From contig JAFGOA010000167.1 in assembly GCA_016926735.1 (NCBI GenBank), forward strand, positions 1 through 12,129: a DNA stretch of 12,129 nucleotides, written 5' to 3'. This DNA comes from Promethearchaeota archaeon (GTDB lineage Archaea; Asgardarchaeota; Lokiarchaeia; Sigyniarchaeales; SOKP01). Within the stretch, counting starts at the first letter, position 1; each line of letters starts with the position of its first letter. Positions 1 through 12,129 of the stretch are shown here, piece by piece. The position numbers and the translations under genes are program-made. Under the pieces are notes generated by a model that saw only the letters and a program-made list of their open reading frames with translations, ran no database searches and had not been told where the DNA came from.

Positions 1-1
1 T

Positions 2-1777
2 AGCTTCATAATAAGTGGTATTTATTGGACTTATAAATTCCACAGAAGGAGATATTAAATCTTTATCATCAGGTGGTGGTATAAATAGTCCACCATCTGT
101 TATTGTCCAACCATAAGTACTTATAATAGTGGCTCTGGCAGCAGCAGCTGCTCCTGCGCTATATTGTGAGTTTCCCCCATGAAAATCTATCCCAGTTTGC
201 AAAGTCAAAGCTGACCATCCGATTAACAAGCTATTATAATTATCGGTTGATAATGTTATACCATAAAACATTCCAGTCATATTAGTTACACTGGAAACAT
301 CCCAATCTCCTATATCTTGATCAAAATTCTGTGTATAAATAAACATAAAACTCATATTTGTAACACTAGAAACATCCCACCCTCCAATGTCTTGATTGAA
401 AGAGAAGGCATAAACGAACATATAACTCATATCAGTTACACTGGAAACGTCCCAATCACCAATATCTTGATTAAAACTAACCGCCTCATAAAACATCCCT
501 ATCATATCAGTAACATGAGAAACATCCCAATCTCCTATATCTTGATTGAAATACGTTCCTGAGAACATACATGCCATTGTATTAACATTAGATACATCCC
601 AATCTCCTATATCGTGATTGAAAGATAACGTTTCTAAAAACATATAACTCATATCAGTTACACTGGAAACGTCCCAAACGCCTATAGATTGATTGAAAGA
701 ATAAGCTCCACTAAACATATAGCTCATATCTGTAACACTGGAAACGTCCCAATCACCAATATCCTGATTGAATTGATGAGCACCAGCAAACATACCACTC
801 ATATCAGTTACATTGGAAACATCCCAATCACCAATATCCTGATTGAATTGATGAGCACCAGCAAACATACCACTCATATCAGTTACACTGGAAACATACC
901 AATTACCAATATCTAGGTTGAATTGATCAGCACCAGCAAACATATAGCTCATATCTGTAACATTTGAAACATCCCAATCATTCATATCTCCAGAATTACC
1001 AAGATTACTACAATCCCTAAAAGCTTGGTGGAGTGTAGTCGTTCCGGTTAGATCTGGAGTATCAATAGCAGTAATGTAAAGATTAGAGCATCCCCAGAAA
1101 TAATTTCCAGAATTTCCTAATCTTAAATTACTCCATCGTTTAATTTCAAGCAATTTTAATTTATCTCCCTTATTATTAAAGCTCCAACCAGTTAAATTCC
1201 CGATTATACTAATTGTATATACTCCTGCTAAAGTATATGTATGAGTTACTTCTGCTTGATTCCAAGAAGTAATTGTATTCGTGTTTCCATCACCCCAATT
1301 CACGATAAAATTATATATTCCGCTTGATTCTAATGGTAAAACAACTTGATGATTATTACTGGAACCTGAGCTAGTTCTAACTGTATCCCATACTGAGGTA
1401 AAATTCATATATTGTTCAGAAATAATAGTAAATGAAACTGAAGTTGATGCTATATTTCCTGCAGAATCATTTGCCCAAGCAATTATAGTATTCAATCCTT
1501 CACTGAATATGATAAAAATTTCAGTGATATAAGTTACATTTGAACCATCATTTATATTATACCAAATAGTATCGATTGCAATATTATCTGATGCTGAGAT
1601 CTCTAAAAGTTGACTAGCTTCATAATAAGTGGTATTTATTGGGCTTTCAATCTGCACTATTGGAGAAGTTGTATCCTCATTATCAAATTGTGTTATATAA
1701 AAAAACAATCCGATAATTGAACTAAATATAATAACTATTATTAGTATAAAACCTAATAATTTTTGATTTTCTTTCAT
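2..1777 (-). CDS. BspA/DUF285-repeat cell-surface protein with Ig-like and PKD-like domains (3' end lies beyond the window edge)
   Basis: Manual translation from ATG 1777 is stop-free for 592 codons to the left edge. Order: MKENQK plus hydrophobic [22 protein letters not shown]; Ig-like [17 protein letters not shown]...[21 protein letters not shown]; PKD-like [37 protein letters not shown]; ten [25 protein letters not shown] repeats; cap [14 protein letters not shown]...YGWTITDGG. Confidence 0.93.
265..985 (-). repeat. Ten tandem coding repeats of about 75 bp (DUF285/BspA-type LRR-like, 25 aa; one unit is 24 aa)
   Basis: The Trp codons of W[DY]VS run from 974-976 to 302-304, a distance of 672 nt = 8x75 + 72. 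Positions 747-812 are identical to 822-887. Confidence 0.95.
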
Positions 1778-1826
1778 AGTAATTACTTTTTTTGTAAAAT
1801 ATTCTTAATTTTCAAAATTGGATTTC

Positions 1827-1839
1827 TATATAAAGGTTT
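1827..1839 (-). promoter_or_regulatory. Putative archaeal BRE/TATA promoter of the BspA-like gene
   Basis: The minus strand reads AAACC-TTTATATA about 50 nt upstream of ATG 1777. Confidence 0.55.
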
Positions 1840-2071
1840 GAGGTGTAGTTTTCAAACTATTTTTTTTCTATGAAAAGTAAATAAATTTAAATTGAAAATG
1901 GATGCAAAATAACTGTTTTTTTAAAAAGGACTTATAATTGATTAAATAGAGTTTTTATAATAGATAAATTTTACTAATGAAAACATGGAGAACTCGACTA
2001 TATGTTACAATAATCTCGTTATAGTAGACTTAGGCTCTGTACACATACTCTAGCTTTACAGAGATTAACTT

Positions 2072-2143
2072 TGGAGTCGGGGGGAATCGAACCCCCGATC
2101 TCTTCCATGCCAAGGAAGCGATATTCCACTAATCCACGACCCC
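2072..2143 (-). tRNA. tRNA-Ala (GGC), intronless, CCA not encoded
   Basis: Reverse complement: GGGGTCGTGGATTAGTGGAATATCGCTTCCTTGGCATGGAAGAGATCGGGGGTTCGATTCCCCCCGACTCCA. Acceptor stem GGGGTCG/CGACTCC carries the G3:U70 alanine determinant. Anticodon arm is CTTCC-TTGGCAT-GGAAG, T-loop is TTCGATT, discriminator is A. Confidence 0.97.
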
Positions 2144-2383
2144 ATTTTTAGAAGAAAGAGTATGTTATATATTTAGGGTTTTATGTTAAATATTTAAAAT
2201 ATATTATACTAAATATATTCTTTTTAAAAAAATTATTGATCAGGCTTTTTTTTTCCCTAAGACAACATTATTTTTTCCTTATAGTTATAAAGAAAATATT
2301 TAATAAAATCTGGAGATTTATACAATAAGAAATCTTTAGATTTTTAAATAAATAAAAAATAAATAATATTTAAGAAGAAAAAT

Positions 2384-5300
2384 ATGAAATATTCAAAAAT
2401 TGTAGCAAAAATATTTTTTTTATTGATACTTTTAATCCAAATAGCATTTCCAATAATTATAGCTAATAATTCAGCAGCAGCACCTAAAAAAATAAAATAT
2501 CTAGATCCTGTGAATATTGATTTTAATCTTAAAAATCAATTGACTAATGAAAATTTAGTAGAAACAGATTTTCTTATCGCTGAAGATTCGGTTTTTGATA
2601 CGGATCTAAGAGAATACTTGATCAATTTAAAAACAAATGTGTTCGAACATAATAACACTATTAATATAATAATAGAATTTAAGCAACAATTATCTCAGGA
2701 AAAACGATTGGAACTTTTAAATTCTATATTTATTTCATATGAAGTTATAAATAACTATAACTTGATTAATGGTATTCAAATAAAAATACATATAAAACAT
2801 CTTATTGACAAGGAATCGGTTATTTTAAAAACCACTGATATAAATAAAATATATAAATCTAAAACATATACAACACCTGTAATAACAAATGATAAATTAA
2901 AAGATAGTAATTTAGATAAAAATACATATCCTAATTGGTGGATACCAGCAATAGGTGCAGATAACGTAGAATATGATGGTACGGGAGTAAAAGTAGCTGT
3001 TCTTGATACAGGTATTTTTAATCATCCAGATTTAAATATAATAAATAATAGTCGATTCATAGCAGAAAATGAACTAACAGATATAAATGGACATGGAACT
3101 CATGTAGCAGGAATAATAGGAAGCAATGGTGATTCCTCAGGCAATCTTTATAGAGGTGTGGCTCCAGGAGTATCTTTGATTGATGCTCATGTAGGAAATA
3201 TGAGTGGAAGCATTGATGATTTTGATGTGATAGACGCTATAGAATGGGCAGCAAATCCAGCCAAAGCAGGAGCAGATATAATCTCAATGAGTTTTGGAGG
3301 ATCTTTATTTGAAGAAAATATCTTGCTTAACCAAGCTATATCTAATGCTAAAAAGAATTATGGTACTATTTTTGTGGTATCAGCAGGTAATTCAGGACCA
3401 GAATATTATACGGGTTCTCCACCAGCGACATTTATTGATACTATTAGTGTTGGAGCCACAAATGAAACGAATGGATTAGCATCATTTAGTAGTTGGGGAC
3501 CTTCCTTAAGTTATTTAGGCTATCCTGATATTGTAGCTCCAGGAGTGAATATTATATCAACTTCAGCTACAAATTCTTTAATAGAAAAAGAAAAAAAGCT
3601 TATTGGAGATTTTTTTGATTTTTCTGGAGCAGCGGATTATGTTCCATTAAGTGGTACTAGCATGTCATGTCCAATAGTATCTGGAGCTATTGCCATTCTT
3701 AAAGAAGCTTTTCCATCAATTACACCAGAAACAGCTAGAATAGCACTTCAAGAAGGTGCAAACAAGCTTTCTCAATTAGATAATAATGATTTTTTAAAAT
3801 ATGGAGCAGGATTAATTAATATATCAGCATCAATCCAATATCTTAAACATATAAATGCGACACAATCAGATATAAATAATGTTACAAGAGTTTTTCCCGA
3901 TTTATTACCAGTAAAACCTTATGATTTACTCCATTTTCCAGGAGATTCACAAATATTTAATTTATCTATAATATCAGGGAGAGAAAATACAATTGATATT
4001 GAAATTCCAAATAATATTGAAGGAATATCTATTAACTCAACCTATGACAAGATATTCTTTTCTGAATCAGGAATAAATTTTACAGAAATTAAAATTGAAA
4101 TCGAAAACAATGTTGAAATTGGAATAAAAGATTTTCAAATTAATATTACAATAAATGGAAAGATTTCAGATACACTTTATATAACCCTTGATATAAGACT
4201 ACCCCAAAAGAAAATTTTAATGGAATCTTTTCATGGATTAAATGATTGGTTAAATCCTGATTATTCATTTCCACAAATAGGTTTCTATCAGGTTATAAAG
4301 GATTTAGCAATGAAAAATATTTCTACTGATTATTTTATGGAATATTGGCAACCATATTACAATAAATCATCAGATAATTTATTATTATCAGAGCAATACC
4401 TATTTCAATATGATTTAGTTGTGCTTCAGAATCCAATTCTTCCTTATAGTTCATTAGAAATAAATGCTCTTAAAAATTATTTTGAAATGGGGGGAAATAT
4501 ACTATTTTTAGGTACAACATACGAAAAAATGTGTGTGGATAATATAAATTTACTCTTTTCAGAATTAGGAGTAGACACCGAAATTGCTAAAGAAAATATA
4601 ATTGATGAAGAATATGTTGGATTAGGTTCGATAATACACTCAATTCCCGCAATCCCTATCAATAATGAAAATATTTTTGAGAATGTTGACAAATTTCTTT
4701 GGTATTATGGTAACACATTTGAAGTAACTGGAGAAGCAGAATCAATTGCGCTAATTAATAATTTATCTGTTTCGACATTATATGATGGAGACTCTCAAGA
4801 AAAAGGACGTTTCTTAAGTTTTGGAGATCTACATTGGCTTTATTATGATTATTCAGAAGAATCTGAGAATTATAAACAGAATCATGAAATTCTACTTGAT
4901 AATATAATGAATTATTTTTTTAATAATTCAGAAATATCAATAACTACTAATTTAAACTCGATCTGTTCTGAAAATGAATTATTAAATATGTCCATTTATT
5001 TAATAAATCAGACATCAAGAATCCCTTTGGAGAGTAGTATTTTAAATTCAGATCTTAGAGTAACGATTAAAAATGATACCTTTTCACAAGAAATTAAATT
5101 CTCATCAATTACAAATGGAGTAGCATATAACGATTCATATAAAATACCTTACGCCAGTAATATTCTATATAATATTAAAGTAAGTCTTTCTATCGATACC
5201 AAAACATACAATAGAACTTTTAAAATCCTATATTATAATTCAAATTTAATACCTCAAATCATATCTTTAGAGACAGATCCTCAGAACTATGTAAATAAAG

Positions 5301-6316
5301 GGAGTATTATGAATATAACAGCAACCCTATCTGAAGAAAATTATAATGATTTTAATGCTTATTTATCATATTATGCTTATGGATTTCATAATAGAAAAGA
5401 AACTCAAAATTATACAGCTCTGTTGTCACAATATATTCCAAAAGTATATATGAATTCAATTAATATTCCCACAACCAGTTCTGGTTTTGGTATATTTTAT
5501 ATTGAACCTATGAATGGGAATTTCAGTTCTTTTTATTCTCCAAGAGTATTTTTCAGAATAAGAAATTCGGCACCAACTATTAGTCAATTACAATCTTCTT
5601 TTAAAATAGGAGATGGTAGAAGTATATCTTTCTCAGATATAATTTATGGAAATTCTATCTTATTACAGCAAGCTACTCAAGGAGATTCAATATCTTTCCG
5701 AATTGTTGCTTATGATACAGGAGGTTATAGTGATTCTCAATCAGATTTTCGTGTTTCCGTAAATTATTTCATGGCTGCAGTTAATGGATCTAGATCAATA
5801 TGGCCATTAATTCCAAGTAAATTTATTACTTCTGAATTGACATATGACTCAGGAGCGCATATAGGCTCATTAAGAATACCTAATTCAATAGATTTTGATA
5901 CAATTTCGGGAGAAAAATCGATTTCAACAGCACCCTCAGATCAACCATCTAATTATATAAGCATACTCTATATTAATGTACTTGATAAGGAAGGAGCAAG
6001 TACGAATGATCCATTTATAATTGCTTTTTTGATTAAACCTGCTGAGACAATGATCATGGCAATTATCATTATTGCAATTATAGCGGGTGTCTTTGCATTC
6101 GCAATTGTTATATATTTATTGAGAAGAAAGAGATTAATGCCAGAGCGAACGGGTTATCAACAATATGAAAATTTTGAAAATCCCTATATAGATGAGAAAA
6201 CAGCACAAGAGTTTGGAGAAATAAAGGATATAAAATTTTGTCCTTTCTGTGGATCTAAGGTTGGTGATTCTAGTATCTACTGTGGGAATTGCGGAAAAAA
6301 ATTTGAATTTGAATAA
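2384..6316 (+). CDS. Membrane-anchored S8 subtilisin-like serine protease, site-1-protease-like architecture, C-terminal zinc ribbon
   Basis: Signal peptide and propeptide; catalytic motifs VAVLDTG, HGTHVAG, AGNSG and GTSMSCP; GIFT/GATase-like segment YDLVVLQNP...EINALKNYFEMGGNILFLG; TM helix IMAIIIIAIIAGVFAFAIVIYLL-RRKR; CPFC-x10-CGNC at the C-terminus. Confidence 0.93.
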   Translation: MKYSKIVAKIFFLLILLIQIAFPIIIANNSAAAPKKIKYLDPVNIDFNLKNQLTNENLVETDFLIAEDSVFDTDLREYLINLKTNVFEHNNTINIIIEFKQQLSQEKRLELLNSIFISYEVINNYNLINGIQIKIHIKHLIDKESVILKTTDINKIYKSKTYTTPVITNDKLKDSNLDKNTYPNWWIPAIGADNVEYDGTGVKVAVLDTGIFNHPDLNIINNSRFIAENELTDINGHGTHVAGIIGSNGDSSGNLYRGVAPGVSLIDAHVGNMSGSIDDFDVIDAIEWAANPAKAGADIISMSFGGSLFEENILLNQAISNAKKNYGTIFVVSAGNSGPEYYTGSPPATFIDTISVGATNETNGLASFSSWGPSLSYLGYPDIVAPGVNIISTSATNSLIEKEKKLIGDFFDFSGAADYVPLSGTSMSCPIVSGAIAILKEAFPSITPETARIALQEGANKLSQLDNNDFLKYGAGLINISASIQYLKHINATQSDINNVTRVFPDLLPVKPYDLLHFPGDSQIFNLSIISGRENTIDIEIPNNIEGISINSTYDKIFFSESGINFTEIKIEIENNVEIGIKDFQINITINGKISDTLYITLDIRLPQKKILMESFHGLNDWLNPDYSFPQIGFYQVIKDLAMKNISTDYFMEYWQPYYNKSSDNLLLSEQYLFQYDLVVLQNPILPYSSLEINALKNYFEMGGNILFLGTTYEKMCVDNINLLFSELGVDTEIAKENIIDEEYVGLGSIIHSIPAIPINNENIFENVDKFLWYYGNTFEVTGEAESIALINNLSVSTLYDGDSQEKGRFLSFGDLHWLYYDYSEESENYKQNHEILLDNIMNYFFNNSEISITTNLNSICSENELLNMSIYLINQTSRIPLESSILNSDLRVTIKNDTFSQEIKFSSITNGVAYNDSYKIPYASNILYNIKVSLSIDTKTYNRTFKILYYNSNLIPQIISLETDPQNYVNKGSIMNITATLSEENYNDFNAYLSYYAYGFHNRKETQNYTALLSQYIPKVYMNSINIPTTSSGFGIFYIEPMNGNFSSFYSPRVFFRIRNSAPTISQLQSSFKIGDGRSISFSDIIYGNSILLQQATQGDSISFRIVAYDTGGYSDSQSDFRVSVNYFMAAVNGSRSIWPLIPSKFITSELTYDSGAHIGSLRIPNSIDFDTISGEKSISTAPSDQPSNYISILYINVLDKEGASTNDPFIIAFLIKPAETMIMAIIIIAIIAGVFAFAIVIYLLRRKRLMPERTGYQQYENFENPYIDEKTAQEFGEIKDIKFCPFCGSKVGDSSIYCGNCGKKFEFE

Positions 6317-6318
6317 AA

Positions 6319-6339
6319 TTTATTTCTTTTTTTTTTTTT
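6319..6339 (+). terminator. Oligo-T archaeal-type terminator
   Basis: A T13 run at 6327-6339 follows the protease stop codon. Confidence 0.55.
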
Positions 6340-6476
6340 GAAACTTATTACTATTTATAAATAATTTGAAATCAATTAAATTAGTAAAAAAATTATAGAT
6401 TCAATAATAAAATAAAAATAATAAAAAAATAAGCTATTTTTTTCTACGTCATTATCCTCTTTCAAGTGATTGTTAA

Positions 6477-7514
6477 ATGTCAACTTTTCACAAAATATAT
6501 TATAGATCATCCAATAATATGGAAAAAATCGATGATAATTCAATTGCATTAGTAATTACTTCTCCTCCATATCCAATGATAGAAATGTGGGATAAAATTT
6601 TTTCTGAGCAAAATTCTGAAATTGGTCTAGCAATTGAAGAAGGGGAGGGTGATAAAGCATTTAAATTAATGCATGCTGAATTATATAAAGTTTGGAAAGA
6701 GATAAAAAGAATTTTAATAATTGGAGGTATAGTCTGTATAAACATAGGAGATGCTACTAGAACTATTAATAAAAATTTCCAATTATTTCCTTCGCATGCA
6801 ACGATTATCAATCAATTCCTGCATTTAGGTTTTCAATCTTTACCTGAAATTATATGGAGAAAACAAACGAATGCTCCTAATAAATTCATGGGTTCTGGAA
6901 TGATGCCACCTGGAGCGTATGTTACTTTAGAACATGAATTCATCTTATTATTCAGAAAAGGACATAAGAGGAGCTTTCCAAATGAAATATTAAAAGAGAA
7001 AAGAAAGGAGAGTTCTTATTTTTGGGAAGAACGAAATCTATGGTTTTCTGATCTATGGTCTGATTTAAAAGGAGTAAATCAAAGAATAAAAAAAGAAAAT
7101 ATTAGAAAAAGAAGTGCAGCATATCCATTTGAATTAGCTTATCGTCTAATCAATATGTTCTCAATTAAAGAAGATATAGTTCTTGATCCCTTCTTAGGAA
7201 CAGGAACAACGTTATTTGCTGCTATGACCTCAGAAAGAAATAGTATTGGTTATGAAACAGATTCGAAATTCAAGCCTTTAATTGAAGAAGGGATTAAATC
7301 TCTAAAAAATTTCGCTAATAATTATGTTGATAAGAGAATTAAATCTCATCTTAATTTTATCGATAAAAGAAATAAAATAAAAGATTTTAATAAATATTAT
7401 AATAAACAGTATGGATTTCCAGTTATTACAAATCAAGAAAAATTAATTAAGATTCCAAAGATAAAAGAAATAAAAACCAATAATAATAGTGAATATGAAG
7501 TATTTTATGATTAA
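6477..7514 (+). CDS. Beta-class N4-cytosine DNA methyltransferase, M.MthZI/Zim-like (probably CTAG)
   Basis: N-terminal catalytic TSPPY precedes the C-terminal SAM-binding DPFLGTGTT. Blocks KFMGSGMMPPGAYVTLEHE, YFWEERNLWFSDLW and AAYPFELAYRLINM match my recollection of M.MthZI. The CTAG specificity is inferred. Confidence 0.9.
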   Translation: MSTFHKIYYRSSNNMEKIDDNSIALVITSPPYPMIEMWDKIFSEQNSEIGLAIEEGEGDKAFKLMHAELYKVWKEIKRILIIGGIVCINIGDATRTINKNFQLFPSHATIINQFLHLGFQSLPEIIWRKQTNAPNKFMGSGMMPPGAYVTLEHEFILLFRKGHKRSFPNEILKEKRKESSYFWEERNLWFSDLWSDLKGVNQRIKKENIRKRSAAYPFELAYRLINMFSIKEDIVLDPFLGTGTTLFAAMTSERNSIGYETDSKFKPLIEEGIKSLKNFANNYVDKRIKSHLNFIDKRNKIKDFNKYYNKQYGFPVITNQEKLIKIPKIKEIKTNNNSEYEVFYD

Positions 7515-7604
7515 GTATTTTAAATAATCGAGGAAAATCTAAAGAATAGTATAAAATTTAATGAAAATTAAAAAGATAATGTATATAATAATCTAAATTT
7601 TGGT

Positions 7605-8318
7605 TTATATTTTTATAATAGTCCCGTCTTTTTGTCCAATATATGCATTTGATGCCATTTTCACAAATAATCCTGTATCCACAACACCAGGTATTTGAAT
7701 TATCTTTTGATCTAGTTCTTGTGGATTTTGTATTATTCCAAAATCTACATCTAAAATAAAATTACTATTATCTGTTATAAGGGGTCCTGCTTTCATTTTA
7801 GCCATTCTTAAGATAGGTTTCCCTCCTAAGGAGGTTAATTTTTTCATAATAGGTATATACGCTATTGGTATTACTTCTATAGGTACTCCTTTTTTCCATT
7901 GTTCCCCAAGAAAATTAGATTTTTTTCTATAATCTGCAATGATTATAATTTTTCTTGAATTAGAAGCAATAATTTTCTCTTGAACTAAACATCCTCCACC
8001 TCCTTTAATTAGGTTCAGATCTTTATCGATTTCATCTGCACCATCAATATCCAGATCAATTTCAGGGTATTGATCAAGAGATACAAGTGTTAAACTATTT
8101 TCTATTATTAATTGATAAGATTGAAAGGATGTAGGAATACATTTGAGATTAAGATTTTTAATTTTATTCATTTTAGCAATTTCTTCAACAGCATATACTA
8201 CAGTTGAACCACTACCAATTCCTAATATCATATTTTTTTCTAAATTATCTTCAATAGCCTTAATTGCAGCATTCTTTTTTCCTAGTTCAATTAATTCATT
8301 TTCTGACATTTTTATCAT
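7605..8318 (-). CDS. rpiA: Ribose-5-phosphate isomerase A (alternative start at 8309)
   Basis: Motifs GIGSGSTV, DGADEID, IKGGGGCLVQEKI, TDNSNFILD and IPGVVDTGLF. Confidence 0.97.
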   Translation of the reverse strand: MIKMSENELIELGKKNAAIKAIEDNLEKNMILGIGSGSTVVYAVEEIAKMNKIKNLNLKCIPTSFQSYQLIIENSLTLVSLDQYPEIDLDIDGADEIDKDLNLIKGGGGCLVQEKIIASNSRKIIIIADYRKKSNFLGEQWKKGVPIEVIPIAYIPIMKKLTSLGGKPILRMAKMKAGPLITDNSNFILDVDFGIIQNPQELDQKIIQIPGVVDTGLFVKMASNAYIGQKDGTIIKI

Positions 8319-8328
8319 TTTTGTTTTT

Positions 8329-8751
8329 CTATTTTTTCATAAGATCTAGTATTCTAATAGCCAAATAAGCCGCATTTTCACCTCTATCAATTCCAACACA
8401 TGCAACTGGAACTTTTGGTGGCATTTGTACTATAGATAATAAGGCATCTAATCCCCCTAATTTTGCACTTACAGGTACGCCAATGACGGGTCTATTTGTT
8501 TTCGAAGCAATTACTCCAGGAAGAGCTGCAGATAATCCTGCAATTGCTATATATACAAGAGCTTTACAATTTTTTATATAATCATCAAGTTTTTTTGGAT
8601 CTCTATGAGCTGAAAGAATTTTAAGTTCATATGATATTTTCTCTTTCTCTAATACATCAATTGTTTTTTTATATACTGATTCATCAGAAGTACTCCCAGC
8701 TAATACAGCTATAACTACATCATTATTATTATTGATATTATTATCACTCAT
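8329..8751 (-). CDS. purE: PurE (AIR carboxylase / N5-CAIR mutase family)
   Basis: Motifs [26 protein letters not shown] and [11 protein letters not shown]. It lies 10-19 nt upstream of rpiA, so the two are probably co-transcribed. It ends in TAG. Confidence 0.95.
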
Positions 8752-8904
8752 AATTATTCTAGTCTTATAAGTATAATAAGGATTTTATTATTAACTATCA
8801 ATTAAGATGGTAATTCTTTTTATCATCAAAAATCACTAAAGAGACCAATTTTATTGAAATATCATTATTATTTTTAAAATTAATTTATTTCCAAAAATTA
8901 ATGT

Positions 8905-8920
8905 AATAAAGATTTATATA
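8905..8920 (+). promoter_or_regulatory. Putative BRE/TATA promoter for the gene at 8969
   Basis: Purine-rich AATAAAGA is followed by TTTATATA (8913-8920), about 48 nt before ATG 8969. Confidence 0.5.
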
Positions 8921-8968
8921 CCTATGATTATTAAATATATTATTCACATAATCTAATTGATAAATTAT

Positions 8969-9706
8969 ATGAAGTTTAAATATAAATTATTCGCTATATG
9001 TTTATTAAGTTGTATAATATACCCATTTCTTATAACACCATTCTCCGTTGCTAATCCGGATATTAATTGGCCAGTTAGTGAAGGGCAAACATATACATAG
9101 AAAGTTACACAAAGTAATACAAATCTAGGCTTTTTACCTGTAAATTCTAAAATCAGTTTACGAGTAAATCATATAGTAAATGAACCAAGTGGTTCAGAAG
9201 AGCAATCAACTATATATGCAAATATTACAGCATACAATAGTACATCTGGAAATACAAATACATTACTTGATAATTCAACTTTCACATTATTCGATGCAAA
9301 TGTGAATTCAACGATGATATTTTCTTCATTTTTGTATCATGGAATCTTCCTACCTCCAAGTCACAAAGAGGGATTTGTTGATGGATTTATAAGTTATCTT
9401 ATAGGTGATCTTAGTCTTGGTCCTGCTGGTGATATGGATTATTCTAGTTATGGGCAATCTGCATATACCTTATATGGATATGATTCTACTACCGATTTAA
9501 TGTATATTTGGATATTTATGGGAAATAGTCTAATAGCAAGTGAAATTGTAATTGCTTATCAGTCATCGCCTCAGGTATTTCAATATTATGCTACATTAGA
9601 AAAACAATCATCTTCAATTCCTTTTGGAAACACTTTCTTATTATTTTTAGCCGCTGGAGTTATATCACTGATTTATCTAAGTCAAAAGAGAATAAATAAA
9701 AAATAA
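8969..9706 (+). pseudogene. Secreted, C-terminally anchored hypothetical protein (245 codons) interrupted by one in-frame TAG at 9098-9100 (pseudogene, sequencing error or amber read-through)
   Basis: ATG 8969 reads MKFKYKLFAICLLSCIIYPFLITPFSVANPDINWPVSEGQTYT*KVTQSNTNLGFLP and continues in frame into the listed ORF 9302..9706. It has a signal peptide at the start and IPFG-TM-basic tail at the end. Confidence 0.8.
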
Positions 9707-9710
9707 TGCA

Positions 9711-9730
9711 ATCTCTTTTTTTTTTATTTT
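9711..9730 (+). terminator. Oligo-T terminator
   Basis: A T10 run at 9716-9725 follows the stop at 9706. Confidence 0.5.
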
Positions 9731-9868
9731 GTTAGTTCTTAATTGAATATCTTAAATATTTTTAAAATCAAATAATTTTAGATATAAGATTTTGGTTGTC
9801 TTTAAAATTAATTTCAAAAACTTTAATTTTTTTTTTTAATTTCTTACATCAAGTTATTTAATATTGAG

Positions 9869-11200
9869 ATGATTTTTAAAATGACAAATATTAGAGAATG
9901 TTGGCTGGTGGATTATGCAAGAACACCATTTAGTCGTTCACGTCCAAAACAACAGGAAAGAGACGTATTTGGAGATAAAAGAGGAGATGAATTATTAGCA
10001 ACCTTGTTAATGAAGTTTTTTGATGATAAACTAGCTAAAAAAGGAATAAAAAAGGAAGATATAGATGATGCTATTGTAGGATGTGCAATGGGTGTCTATG
10101 AAAATTGGACATATGGAGGGAGACTTCCATTATTTTTAGCTAATTTTCCAGTTACAACACCCGCTATGTTTGTAGATCGGCAATGTGGTTCAGCTGGTTC
10201 AGCAATGCATGTAGGCATAATGGAAATAATGTTAGGTTATAGTAAATGCACATTAGCTACAGGAGTAGAACATATGACAAGAATTCCTATGCAAAATGAT
10301 TGGGTTCGACCTAATTTAAATATGATTAGTAAGAAAAGCGAATGGTATAGACCAGATTACGATGTTGTTAATGCGCTTAATATGCTTCAAACAGCTCAGA
10401 AAGTTTATGAAGAGGAAACACCATTTTTCAAAAAAGAAGATTTAGATAAATTTGGTGTTAGAAGTCATAATTTAACAGTAAAATATCAAGAAGAAGGATG
10501 GTTTACTGGTGGGATCTGGGATGGTGAAATTATTCCAATCGAAGGTCATATTACTGGGAATGAAGAAGAAAAAATCATAATCGATAAAGATCAAGCTGCT
10601 CGTAAATCAACTTTAGAACAGGTTTCTCAACTACCAAGACTATCAAGACCTTTCTATTTAAAACAAAATATTAAGGGAGAAGATATCGGTGGAAGAGCTG
10701 GTTATAACGAAAGAGAAGGTACAAAAGAAGGAGTAATTACAGCAGGAAATTCTTCTCCATTAAATGCTGGTGCTACAGCGTGTGTAATGATGGAGGCTAA
10801 AGAGGCAAAATCTAGAGGAATAGAACCTTTAGCTCGTATTGTTTCAATTGGTTGGGCTGGAGTAGATCCTTCAGTAATGGGAAGAGGCCCTGTTCCTGCT
10901 TCAGAAAAAGCATTACAATCCGCAGGATTAAAAGCAGAAGATATAGATTTCTGGGAAATTAATGAAGCATTCACAATTGTTGCTTTAAACTGTATGAAAT
11001 ATCTAAATATTCCTGAAGAAAAAGTCAATATTAGAGGAGGAGCTACCGCAATAGGTCATCCTTTAGGAGCATCTATGATTAGGCTTCCAGGAACACTTGC
11101 TCGAATTTTAAAAGAAGAGAAAGCAAAATATGGATGTGCCAATGCTTGTGTAGGAGGAGGGCAAGGAGTAGCGATTATTTTAGAAAATATAGATGCTTAA
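9869..11200 (+). CDS. Thiolase (acetyl-CoA C-acyltransferase); alternative start at 9881
   Basis: Motifs DYARTPF, catalytic RQCGSA, GVEHM, TAGNSSPLNAGA, EINEAF, AIGHPLGAS and CVGGGQG. Confidence 0.96.
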   Translation: MIFKMTNIRECWLVDYARTPFSRSRPKQQERDVFGDKRGDELLATLLMKFFDDKLAKKGIKKEDIDDAIVGCAMGVYENWTYGGRLPLFLANFPVTTPAMFVDRQCGSAGSAMHVGIMEIMLGYSKCTLATGVEHMTRIPMQNDWVRPNLNMISKKSEWYRPDYDVVNALNMLQTAQKVYEEETPFFKKEDLDKFGVRSHNLTVKYQEEGWFTGGIWDGEIIPIEGHITGNEEEKIIIDKDQAARKSTLEQVSQLPRLSRPFYLKQNIKGEDIGGRAGYNEREGTKEGVITAGNSSPLNAGATACVMMEAKEAKSRGIEPLARIVSIGWAGVDPSVMGRGPVPASEKALQSAGLKAEDIDFWEINEAFTIVALNCMKYLNIPEEKVNIRGGATAIGHPLGASMIRLPGTLARILKEEKAKYGCANACVGGGQGVAIILENIDA

Positions 11201-11210
11201 ATTGTTAATA

Positions 11211-11233
11211 TTTCCTTTTTTTATCTTTTTTTT
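11211..11233 (+). terminator. Oligo-T terminator
   Basis: Tandem T7 and T8 runs follow the thiolase stop. Confidence 0.45.
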
Positions 11234-11390
11234 AAAATTTTCAATTTTTATTTTTTATTTTTTTGTAGTCTTAATCTCAATAGTCCTAATTTAAATTGAA
11301 TTTATCATAAATTTCTTAAGTAATATTTAAATAGATAACTGATATAACTTATCTTATCCATAAATCCCAAAATAGGAGTAAATATTCTGC

Positions 11391-11600
11391 ATGAGTCATT
11401 TATATAAATCAATAGAATTAGTCGGAACATCAGAAATAAATTGGTCTGATGCAGTTAAAAATGCATATAAAGAAGCAAAAAAGACCATTAGAGGAATAAG
11501 GAATATTGAAATTTTAAAATCTGATGTTAAAGTAAAAGAAGATATGGACAGACTAATTTATAGAGTAAGAGTAAGATTAAATTTTGAAATAGAGATGTAA
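11391..11600 (+). CDS. Dodecin-family protein (calcium-dodecin-like subtype)
   Basis: 69 aa with YKSIELVGTS, WSDAVKNA, AKKTIRGI and YRVRVRLNF. AGGAG lies at 11374-11378 upstream. Confidence 0.88.
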   Translation: MSHLYKSIELVGTSEINWSDAVKNAYKEAKKTIRGIRNIEILKSDVKVKEDMDRLIYRVRVRLNFEIEM

Positions 11601-11685
11601 TTTATAAATAATCTCCAATATAATGTTATTAGAACCAGTATAACTTATAAAGTTCTATTAAGAATCGTATAAAATCGTGGTAACA

Positions 11686-11853
11686 TCAACAAATTTTAAC
11701 AATTCGGGGCGATAACACCATCGTCGCTATTCCCTTGCCATCGAAGGTTGTGGGAACTACTTTTCTTAAAGTATACATTGCTTCATTTACATCCATATTG
11801 ATTTTAATCCCTTTCCTCGATTGAGATAAAACTAGTTTGATTCTTTTAACCAT
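11686..11853 (-). CDS. Possible small hypothetical protein (55 aa) or gene remnant
   Basis: MVKRIKLVLSQSRKGIKINMDVNEAMYTLRKVVPTTFDGKGIATMVLSPRIVKIC*. GAGGT lies about 11 nt upstream, and the frame stays open upstream to 11973 with no further ATG. Confidence 0.35.
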   Translation of the reverse strand: MVKRIKLVLSQSRKGIKINMDVNEAMYTLRKVVPTTFDGKGIATMVLSPRIVKIC

Positions 11854-12129
11854 ATATGTCTCATACCTCTCTATTGAGTCATTATCACCTCTCCAGTTTT
11901 CATAGGTTATATTTAATTCTTTATAAGTGTTTATATGTTTGACCCCTTTGGTTTTCCATATTATTACTAAATATCAATATTTTTCTTTTTATTTTCTTGA
12001 TAAATAGAAATACTAGAACATAAAACTAGATTTTTCAAACCACTATATTTTAATTATAAGATTAATAAATATAATATAATATAATAGTAGACTATGATAA
12101 TTTTTTAATTATAAATTTTAAAAGGGTGA

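Follow-up and report, generated by a model that had tools for sequence, protein, structure and literature searches.

The window analyzed here, a stretch of 12,129 nucleotides (nt) from a Promethearchaeota archaeon (contig JAFGOA010000167.1 of assembly GCA_016926735.1, positions 1 to 12,129), carries at 2384..6316 (+) an open reading frame (ORF) of 1310 amino acids (aa) for a membrane-anchored protease of the subtilase (peptidase S8) family. It is the single long ORF of the window at this locus, and it spans the interval 2930-6130 to which a first-pass annotation, made from the sequence alone, had assigned a subtilase gene. That assignment holds, with a match of the translation to PF00082 at an E value of 2.9e-52, and the six peptide strings quoted in its support are all found in the translation, at aa 459-483, 503-508, 517-532, 605-619, 634-649, and 675-710 (nt 3758-4513). 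New with respect to that annotation are the start at 2384, the signal peptide and propeptide that follow it, a stalk of ~370 aa, a zinc-ribbon tail, and an intact set of catalytic residues.

The protein begins with an N-terminal hydrophobic segment (aa 1-27, 2384..2464 (+)), predicted from hydropathy as a signal peptide with a putative cleavage site; the hydropathy peak lies at aa 3-14 in 19-residue windows. It is followed by the propeptide region (aa 28-184, 2465..2935 (+)), which is similar to that of the Thermococcus kodakarensis protease Tk-SP in a phmmer alignment to PDB chain 3afg_A, and by the S8 catalytic domain (aa 199-476, 2978..3811 (+)). A segment with a predicted beta-rich fold (aa ~490-604, 3851..4195 (+)) occupies the place of the P-like subdomain of eukaryotic site-1 protease (MBTPS1, S1P, or SKI-1) and leads into a GIFT domain (aa 605-~850, 4196..4933 (+)). 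The extracellular stalk, probably made of beta-rich domains (aa ~851-1215, 4934..6028 (+)), separates the GIFT domain from a transmembrane (TM) helix (aa 1222-1246, 6047..6121 (+); hydropathy up to 3.18 over 19 residues) and the RRKR motif after it. A cytoplasmic tail of 64 aa (aa 1247-1310, 6122..6313 (+)) carries a C4 zinc ribbon (aa 1285-1306, nt 6236-6301 (+); PF13240) with cysteines 1286, 1289, 1300, and 1303. The protein thus has a type I membrane topology, with a signal peptide and the single C-terminal TM helix that had already been noticed. Among the 29 family members that we examined, an N-terminal hydrophobic segment is present in most and a C-terminal TM segment in all 29.

The active site is complete. 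The catalytic residues D208 (nt 3005-3007 (+)) and H237 (nt 3092-3094 (+)), the oxyanion residue N336 (nt 3389-3391 (+)), and the catalytic S426 (nt 3659-3661 (+)) were verified as residues and codons, and their columns are invariant in the 29 aligned family members. The PF00082 match together with all four active-site residues places the protein in the peptidase S8 family; in NCBIfam, only S8 models hit the protease, far under their cut-offs. Taken together, its features make it almost certain that the protein is an active subtilase, tethered to the membrane and exposed at the surface.

Among proteins of solved structure, Tk-SP (PDB IDs 3AFG and 9UES) is the best sequence relative of the propeptide and S8 domain. 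Our S8-only family profile scores Tk-SP at 293 bits, 8jmw at 229 bits, and subtilisins at 184 to 219 bits. A single-sequence phmmer search aligns the protease with Pro-Tk-SP (3afg_A, 160 bits) from query aa 90 through the propeptide into the S8 domain, covering chain residues 33-421; the alignment stops at residue 421 of 539 and leaves the C-terminal part of Tk-SP unmatched. Tk-SP as a whole is not known to contain a GIFT domain, a TM helix, or a zinc ribbon. The Tk-SP propeptide family PF18237 (Tk-SP_N-pro) matches two distant orthologs weakly, and no Pfam family for an S1P-type prodomain (A/B) was found at E≤10 in the N-terminal 199 aa. The propeptide is therefore, by these similarities, of the Tk-SP type and not of the S1P type.

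Behind the catalytic domain, the GIFT domain that the first-pass annotation had placed after a beta-rich domain is well supported. The IFT52_GIFT model (PF23355) scores 33.2 bits on the whole protein and 39.3 bits on aa 600-879 alone, over a curated cut-off of 27.2 bits, which assigns the protease to the GIFT superfamily; weaker matches to ABC_transp_aux and DUF2194 cover the same segment. A post-catalytic family profile built from 29 sequences matches both IFT52 and S1P, and its match to IFT52 chains (66 bits, E 2e-17) extends over both halves of the GIFT domain. IFT52 (PDB IDs 5FMR, 5FMS, and 8BD7) is a cytoplasmic subunit of a transport complex and has no protease, whereas the archaeal GIFT domain is predicted to be extracellular and is fused behind a subtilase. 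Other relatives of this domain are the prokaryotic GIFT proteins of the GldG/ABC_transp_aux and DUF4350 types. Against 1.84 billion representative sequences the post-catalytic profile found 5498 matches at E≤1e-3, of which the best 150 were listed and 20 were scanned with Pfam; no S1P occurred among these 20. Several non-protease prokaryotic proteins match the profile from inside the beta domain onward, such as P0190, which aligns with profile positions 15-379 and contains GIFT and CARDB domains but no S8 domain.

The remaining extracellular parts are less readily assigned. The beta domain segment matches no Pfam family at E≤10, and the beta domains of the 29 members point to no consistent family, each Pfam family being found in at most one of them at E≤1. 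The best PDB match of a profile of this domain is to a GH123 enzyme, in its N-terminal beta-sandwich (24.5 bits, E 2e-4); the S1P chain is not among the matches at E≤10. The stalk has no Pfam family and, over aa 901-1221, no PDB sequence match at E≤10; its length is conserved across the group of ~1300-aa proteins to which the protease belongs. In the tail, Zn_Ribbon_1 (PF13240) scores 25.4 bits when the tail is searched alone (cut-off 25), the CxxC...CxxC pattern recurs in 22 of the 29 family members, and the cysteine columns are at least 90% conserved in 45 close homologs.

S1P controls the entry to several eukaryotic pathways, among them those of SREBP and ATF6. According to PMC11231238, S1P comprises two prodomains, an S8 domain (187-478) with the catalytic set D218, H249, N338, and S414, a P-like beta-sandwich of noncanonical topology (479-616), a GIFT domain (617-998), a TM helix, and a short tail, in agreement with the layout from which the first-pass annotation had argued. 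The archaeal protease shares with S1P the order prodomain, S8, beta domain, GIFT, single TM helix, and basic tail, as well as the type I topology. The boundaries nearly coincide (S8 at 199-476 versus 187-478, end of the beta domain at 604 versus 616, start of GIFT at 605 versus 617), and the catalytic spacing is similar (D208/H237/N336/S426 versus D218/H249/N338/S414). In contrast, S1P has neither the ~370-aa stalk nor the zinc-ribbon tail, and no equivalent of the S1P partners was found for the archaeal protease, whether SPRING, an SREBP-like substrate, or a linkage to site-2 protease (S2P).

The likeness extends to sequence profiles. S1P is represented by the PDB entries 8UW8, 8UWC, and 9CSD, and the post-catalytic profile matches its chain 8uw8_A at 32 bits (E 6.2e-7) in a collinear manner: profile positions 29-221 align with chain residues 503-732, which cover the P-like subdomain together with the N-terminal half of GIFT, and a second, weak stretch falls at 817-868. 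Three of the four human segments quoted in the first-pass annotation lie in this alignment; the first, located before the beta domain, was not seen. Counting against a specific likeness, a profile of S8, beta, and GIFT domains together scores S1P at 212.8 bits, at about rank 47. In the ESM-Atlas, the clusters with a name that lie nearest to aa 185-905 are eukaryotic MBTPS1 (0.94, 0.90, and 0.90), and 9 of the matches listed belong to the MBTPS1 set; a Thorarchaeota S8/DUF4350 cluster comes after them at 0.89. When only the post-catalytic part was used, the Atlas gave weak leads, the best being an unnamed cluster at 0.89, with MBTPS1 clusters at 0.79. We treat this proximity as a lead and not as a test.

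The families specific to MBTPS1 tell a different story. PF23094 (MBTPS1_3rd) has no match at E≤10 on the beta segment and exceeds its cut-off in none of 301 sampled Asgard genomes. PF23090 (MBTPS1_4th) has no match in the protease or elsewhere in the host genome and is over cut-off in none of the 68 genomes of the host family; across the phylum it is over cut-off in 18 of 301 genomes, and it also scores in GIFT proteins without a protease. As far as the sequence goes, the order S8, beta, GIFT, and TM is thus real and collinear with S1P, while the S8 domain, the propeptide, the GIFT domain, and the beta domain, taken singly, do not point to S1P. The earlier proposal of a prokaryotic S1P relative accordingly stands for domain order, boundaries, and the collinear profile match, and is not supported for the individual parts. 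The protease can be called S1P-like in build; its membership in the S1P family is not established, and reviews class SKI-1/S1P itself as "pyrolysin-like" (PMC8551645).

The protease belongs to a conserved archaeal family. With aa 490-900 as the query, 203 homologs were recovered at E≤1e-3; the best 120 show 46 to 72% identity over this region and are mostly ~1200 to 1350 aa long, some being partial. All named organisms among these 120 are Asgard archaea (Loki- or Promethearchaeota and Thor-, Hermod-, Hod-, Heimdall-, and Odinarchaeota), which bears out the Asgard-like host suspected from the sequence. At E≤1e-5, matches occur in at most 97 of the 301 phylum genomes and in at most 51 of the 68 genomes of the host family, upper bounds because GIFT-only proteins are included; usually there is one match per genome. 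Distant members (ORFs of 1221 to 1319 aa) retain 22 to 33% overall identity, and among the 16 that were scanned all keep S8 and GIFT and 11 have a zinc-ribbon match. In a tree of 38 core regions, the sequences group by genus, then by family, then by order, the pattern that vertical descent would produce. The protease represents a vertically inherited Asgard ortholog group within a wider archaeal set of GIFT-linked subtilases, all types of which share its C-terminal TM anchor.

Part of this wider set is a second Asgard subfamily of ~960 to 1043 aa, which stands apart from the ~1300-aa group (SH-like approximate likelihood ratio test [SH-aLRT] support, 99) and is homologous to it over S8, beta, and GIFT (hhalign probability 100, 673 columns). 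Because it lacks both the stalk and the zinc ribbon and has a short tail, this ~1000-aa subfamily is nearer to S1P in outline. Its profile aligns with S1P without a break from S8 into GIFT (chain 193-730), and its post-catalytic profile finds S1P as the best solved match (22.9 bits, E 3e-4; IFT52, 19.4 bits). If descent is common, the zinc-ribbon group would therefore more probably be a side branch and not the group nearest to S1P.

Outside Asgard archaea, the same build recurs in a few places. In the phylum of "Candidatus Terraquivivens" (Nitrososphaerota at NCBI, TACK-type), S8 was found in 7 of the 8 long ORFs fetched; six of these seven have S8, ~350 extra residues, the beta domain, GIFT, a TM helix, and a short tail, and the seventh (913 aa) has the beta domain directly after S8. 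Thermoplasmatota show GIFT matches in 39 of 251 genomes, all starting past the beta part of the profile, and among 19 loci examined there is one S8-GIFT ORF of 1526 aa. This ORF (L217:2640-7217, genome G751) combines a weak S8 match (53.7 bits) with CARDB, DUF4350/GIFT, fn3, and two Big_7 domains and is, by this domain composition, a further divergent S8-immunoglobulin (Ig)-GIFT surface protein outside Asgard and TACK archaea. A single one of 251 Chloroflexota genomes was matched at E≤1e-8, by an ORF of 497 aa with GIFT alone. In a sample of 79 S8 loci from many phyla, the best matches by similarity to this S8 domain, beta and GIFT domains occur in the S8 ORF only in the two Asgard loci.

In an S8-domain tree of 130 rows, from which one row had been dropped for short coverage and which comprises neither eukaryotic S1P nor pyrolysin, 46 of the 52 GIFT-linked S8 domains fall together to one side of a branch with an SH-aLRT value of 96. 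They comprise 31/31 of the ~1300-aa group, 7/7 TACK sequences, 5/5 Asgard-type insert forms (S8 and beta domain separated by an insert; two of these are named Asgard or come from Asgard genomes), and 3/9 of the ~1000-aa subfamily. Constraining all 52 to group together improves the log-likelihood by 11.9 units over the free quick tree (P value of the approximately unbiased test, 0.61). A single old fusion in archaea is therefore compatible with the data, albeit unproven.

The surroundings of the gene are mainly of a housekeeping kind. Upstream and on the opposite strand lies a gene for a DUF285/PKD surface-type protein, a partial ORF at 2-1777 (-) with DUF285 at 347 bits in three stretches and a weak PKD match; tandem repeats at 266-980, with periods of 75 (9.6 copies) and 297, correspond to repeated protein units within it. 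In the AT-rich intergenic region before the protease, a 24-bp unit occurs twice (82% matches) at 2306-2351, 33 to 78 bp upstream of the start codon, and may or may not be regulatory; a scan for sigma-70-type promoters and terminators gave results at chance level, as expected for an archaeon. Downstream follow a DNA methylase, RpiA, PurE, an ORF of 134 aa, and a thiolase. The N6/N4-type methylase (6477-7514 (+)) matches PF01555 (E 3.7e-41), with NCBIfam models far under their cut-offs, and no restriction partner for it was noticed in the window. In five relatives from the host family (L064, L065, L067, L068, and L075) the protease adjoins RpiA-sized and PurE-sized ORFs with no methylase, so the methylase looks like a local insertion. 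Neither Pfam nor NCBIfam matches the 134-aa ORF (9302-9706 (+)) in the gap between PurE and the thiolase, and the relatives examined have no ORF of at least 100 aa in that gap.

Distant members have other housekeeping neighbors: genes for TIM and an ARMT1-like phosphatase accompany the protease in two of them, and the neighbors elsewhere include FBPase, aldolase, and LysRS. No conserved partner, S2P gene, membrane-tethered regulator, or shared ABC operon lies beside the gene in 12 relatives; ABC-type genes occur near the protease in 3 of these 12 loci (L069, L073, and L074) in no common arrangement, and none flank it within the window. Small Ras/Arf-family GTPase genes adjoin the protease ortholog in two relatives (L068:12249-12773 and L070:7561-8166), but genes of this family are common in Asgard genomes and the adjacency may be due to chance.

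The host genome holds only one S8-GIFT fusion gene. Its two further S8 genes encode PPC and CARDB domains, in one case with a dockerin domain as well, and look like ordinary secreted proteases. Two M50 (S2P-type) matches lie on other contigs. The same genome (G000) also encodes three stand-alone GIFT proteins of 296, 387, and 413 aa (L078-L080, at C228:16097-16984, C13:15952-17112, and C108:18164-19402), whose IFT52_GIFT scores of 36.9 to 48.5 bits are over the cut-off. An N-terminal hydrophobic segment is absent from the sequences of all three, and the only PDB sequence matches of the 296-aa protein are IFT52 chains (E 5e-6). These three are possible cytoplasmic IFT52-like proteins of an Asgard archaeon.

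As to function, we prefer limited processing of the cell's own envelope proteins, to which we give a probability of about 50%. This preference stems from the mostly single match per genome, the vertical inheritance, the housekeeping neighbors, the zinc ribbon, and the presence of two conventional secreted S8 proteases in the same genome. In such a scheme the protein would first be exported by the Sec pathway; the propeptide would then fold the enzyme, inhibit it, and be removed by self-cleavage. According to the cryogenic electron microscopy study of S1P-SPRING, the three S1P subdomains form one head in which GIFT steadies the oxyanion-hole loops (PMC11231238). By analogy, the archaeal beta and GIFT domains may pack on S8 into a compact head that works like that of S1P. 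The stalk would lift this head above the membrane, and the tail could link the enzyme to a cytoplasmic partner. Acting in the manner of a proprotein convertase, the enzyme would make limited cuts in the cell's own surface or membrane proteins, for maturation or shedding, and would not digest proteins in bulk.

Several observations weigh against a processing role or, separately, against kinship with S1P. The conserved housekeeping neighbors say little about function, and a life on peptides and amino acids, as assumed for Loki-type archaea, would suit a feeding protease. Seven of the 29 family members have no zinc ribbon, so the tail is dispensable for the function of the family. In S1P the TM helix follows GIFT almost directly, whereas the stalk would place the archaeal active site far from the membrane. 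The post-catalytic profile scores IFT52 higher than S1P (66 versus 32 bits), and S1P is absent from the best 60 of the 189 PDB matches of the S8-only profile, the 60th of which scores 184.4 bits. Finally, since GIFT is common in prokaryotes and non-protease proteins match the profile across beta and GIFT, an Ig-plus-GIFT cassette could have joined S8 domains repeatedly.

The main rival idea is that of a tethered cell-surface feeding protease that, in the way of other envelope-bound subtilases of archaea, turns environmental proteins into peptides for uptake, its S1P-like order being a convergent fusion of S8 with a common Ig-plus-GIFT cassette. The closeness of propeptide and S8 to Tk-SP, a secreted archaeal subtilase, agrees with this idea, as do the many non-protease prokaryotic proteins (P0190 among them) matched by the post-catalytic profile and the Thermoplasmatota S8-CARDB-GIFT ORF, which suggests repeated fusions. 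However, a gene usually present once per genome and inherited vertically across the phylum is not what a feeding enzyme leads one to expect, and a conserved cytoplasmic zinc ribbon would be of no obvious use to it. The genome already has two S8 proteases of typical secreted build, and the compatibility of the GIFT-linked S8 domains with one clade argues against many independent fusions in Asgard and TACK archaea. We regard a feeding role as rather unlikely, although it is the strongest competitor of envelope processing.

Less probable still is the role proposed in the first-pass annotation, S1P/S2P-type signalling, in which a true ortholog or ancestor-like relative of S1P would make the first, extracytoplasmic cut in a tethered regulator that M50 (S2P) then releases by regulated intramembrane proteolysis. 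The domain order and boundaries, the collinear profile match, MBTPS1 as the nearest named Atlas clusters, the Asgard host, and the two M50 matches in its genome are all in line with such a system. Yet M50 is matched in 14 of 14 control genomes as well and is unlinked to the protease here, and the 12 relatives show no conserved partner gene or membrane-tethered regulator beside it. The S8 domain is nearer to Tk-SP and subtilisins than to S1P, the propeptide is Tk-SP-like, PF23094 and PF23090 do not exceed their cut-offs (0/301 genomes and 0/68 of the host family, respectively), a ~370-aa stalk would set the active site far off the membrane, and TACK-type archaea have the same build, as does one Thermoplasmatota genome, there with a divergent S8. 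Nothing beyond architecture lies behind this role, and we consider it improbable. A noncatalytic surface or transporter accessory protein is more improbable by far and, as a dead enzyme, was rejected because the active site is intact, with its four catalytic residues invariant in 29/29 members, no ABC transporter genes flanking the protease in the window, and no common ABC arrangement in 12 relatives.

Whatever is cleaved, the shared domain order hints at an archaeal root for the eukaryotic site-1 protease. Our literature search, which did not cover the supplementary tables of eukaryotic signature proteins in Asgard genome papers, found no paper on an archaeal MBTPS1-type or S1P-like subtilase, and in no paper found was the origin of S1P discussed; the "S1P" of PMC9263693 is a PrsW-like M82 protease and not MBTPS1. 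Common descent of the fusion with eukaryotic S1P is a tentative proposal, which we think has the smaller share of the odds. In its fuller form, the Asgard/TACK GIFT-linked membrane subtilases would be the stock of eukaryotic S1P, the fusion having been made once in archaea and then inherited by eukaryotes, with the S8 domain and prodomain changing fast thereafter; this, too, we hold to be possible but doubtful.

If it is true, S1P would count among the eukaryotic signature proteins and would so far have been overlooked as one, enzymes of this type would have made limited cuts in membrane or surface proteins before there was an endomembrane system, and the ~1300-aa zinc-ribbon group would be a side branch of the ancestral stock. 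If the likeness is convergent, S8 plus Ig plus GIFT would be a recurrent archaeal surface build, and the label "S8 family serine peptidase" would conceal a membrane protease of its own kind that is inherited vertically and carries a zinc-ribbon tail in the cytoplasm. A conserved archaeal family with the three-domain head, present in the closest archaeal relatives of eukaryotes, makes the origin of S1P directly testable and provides a prokaryotic model for a GIFT domain that serves a protease.

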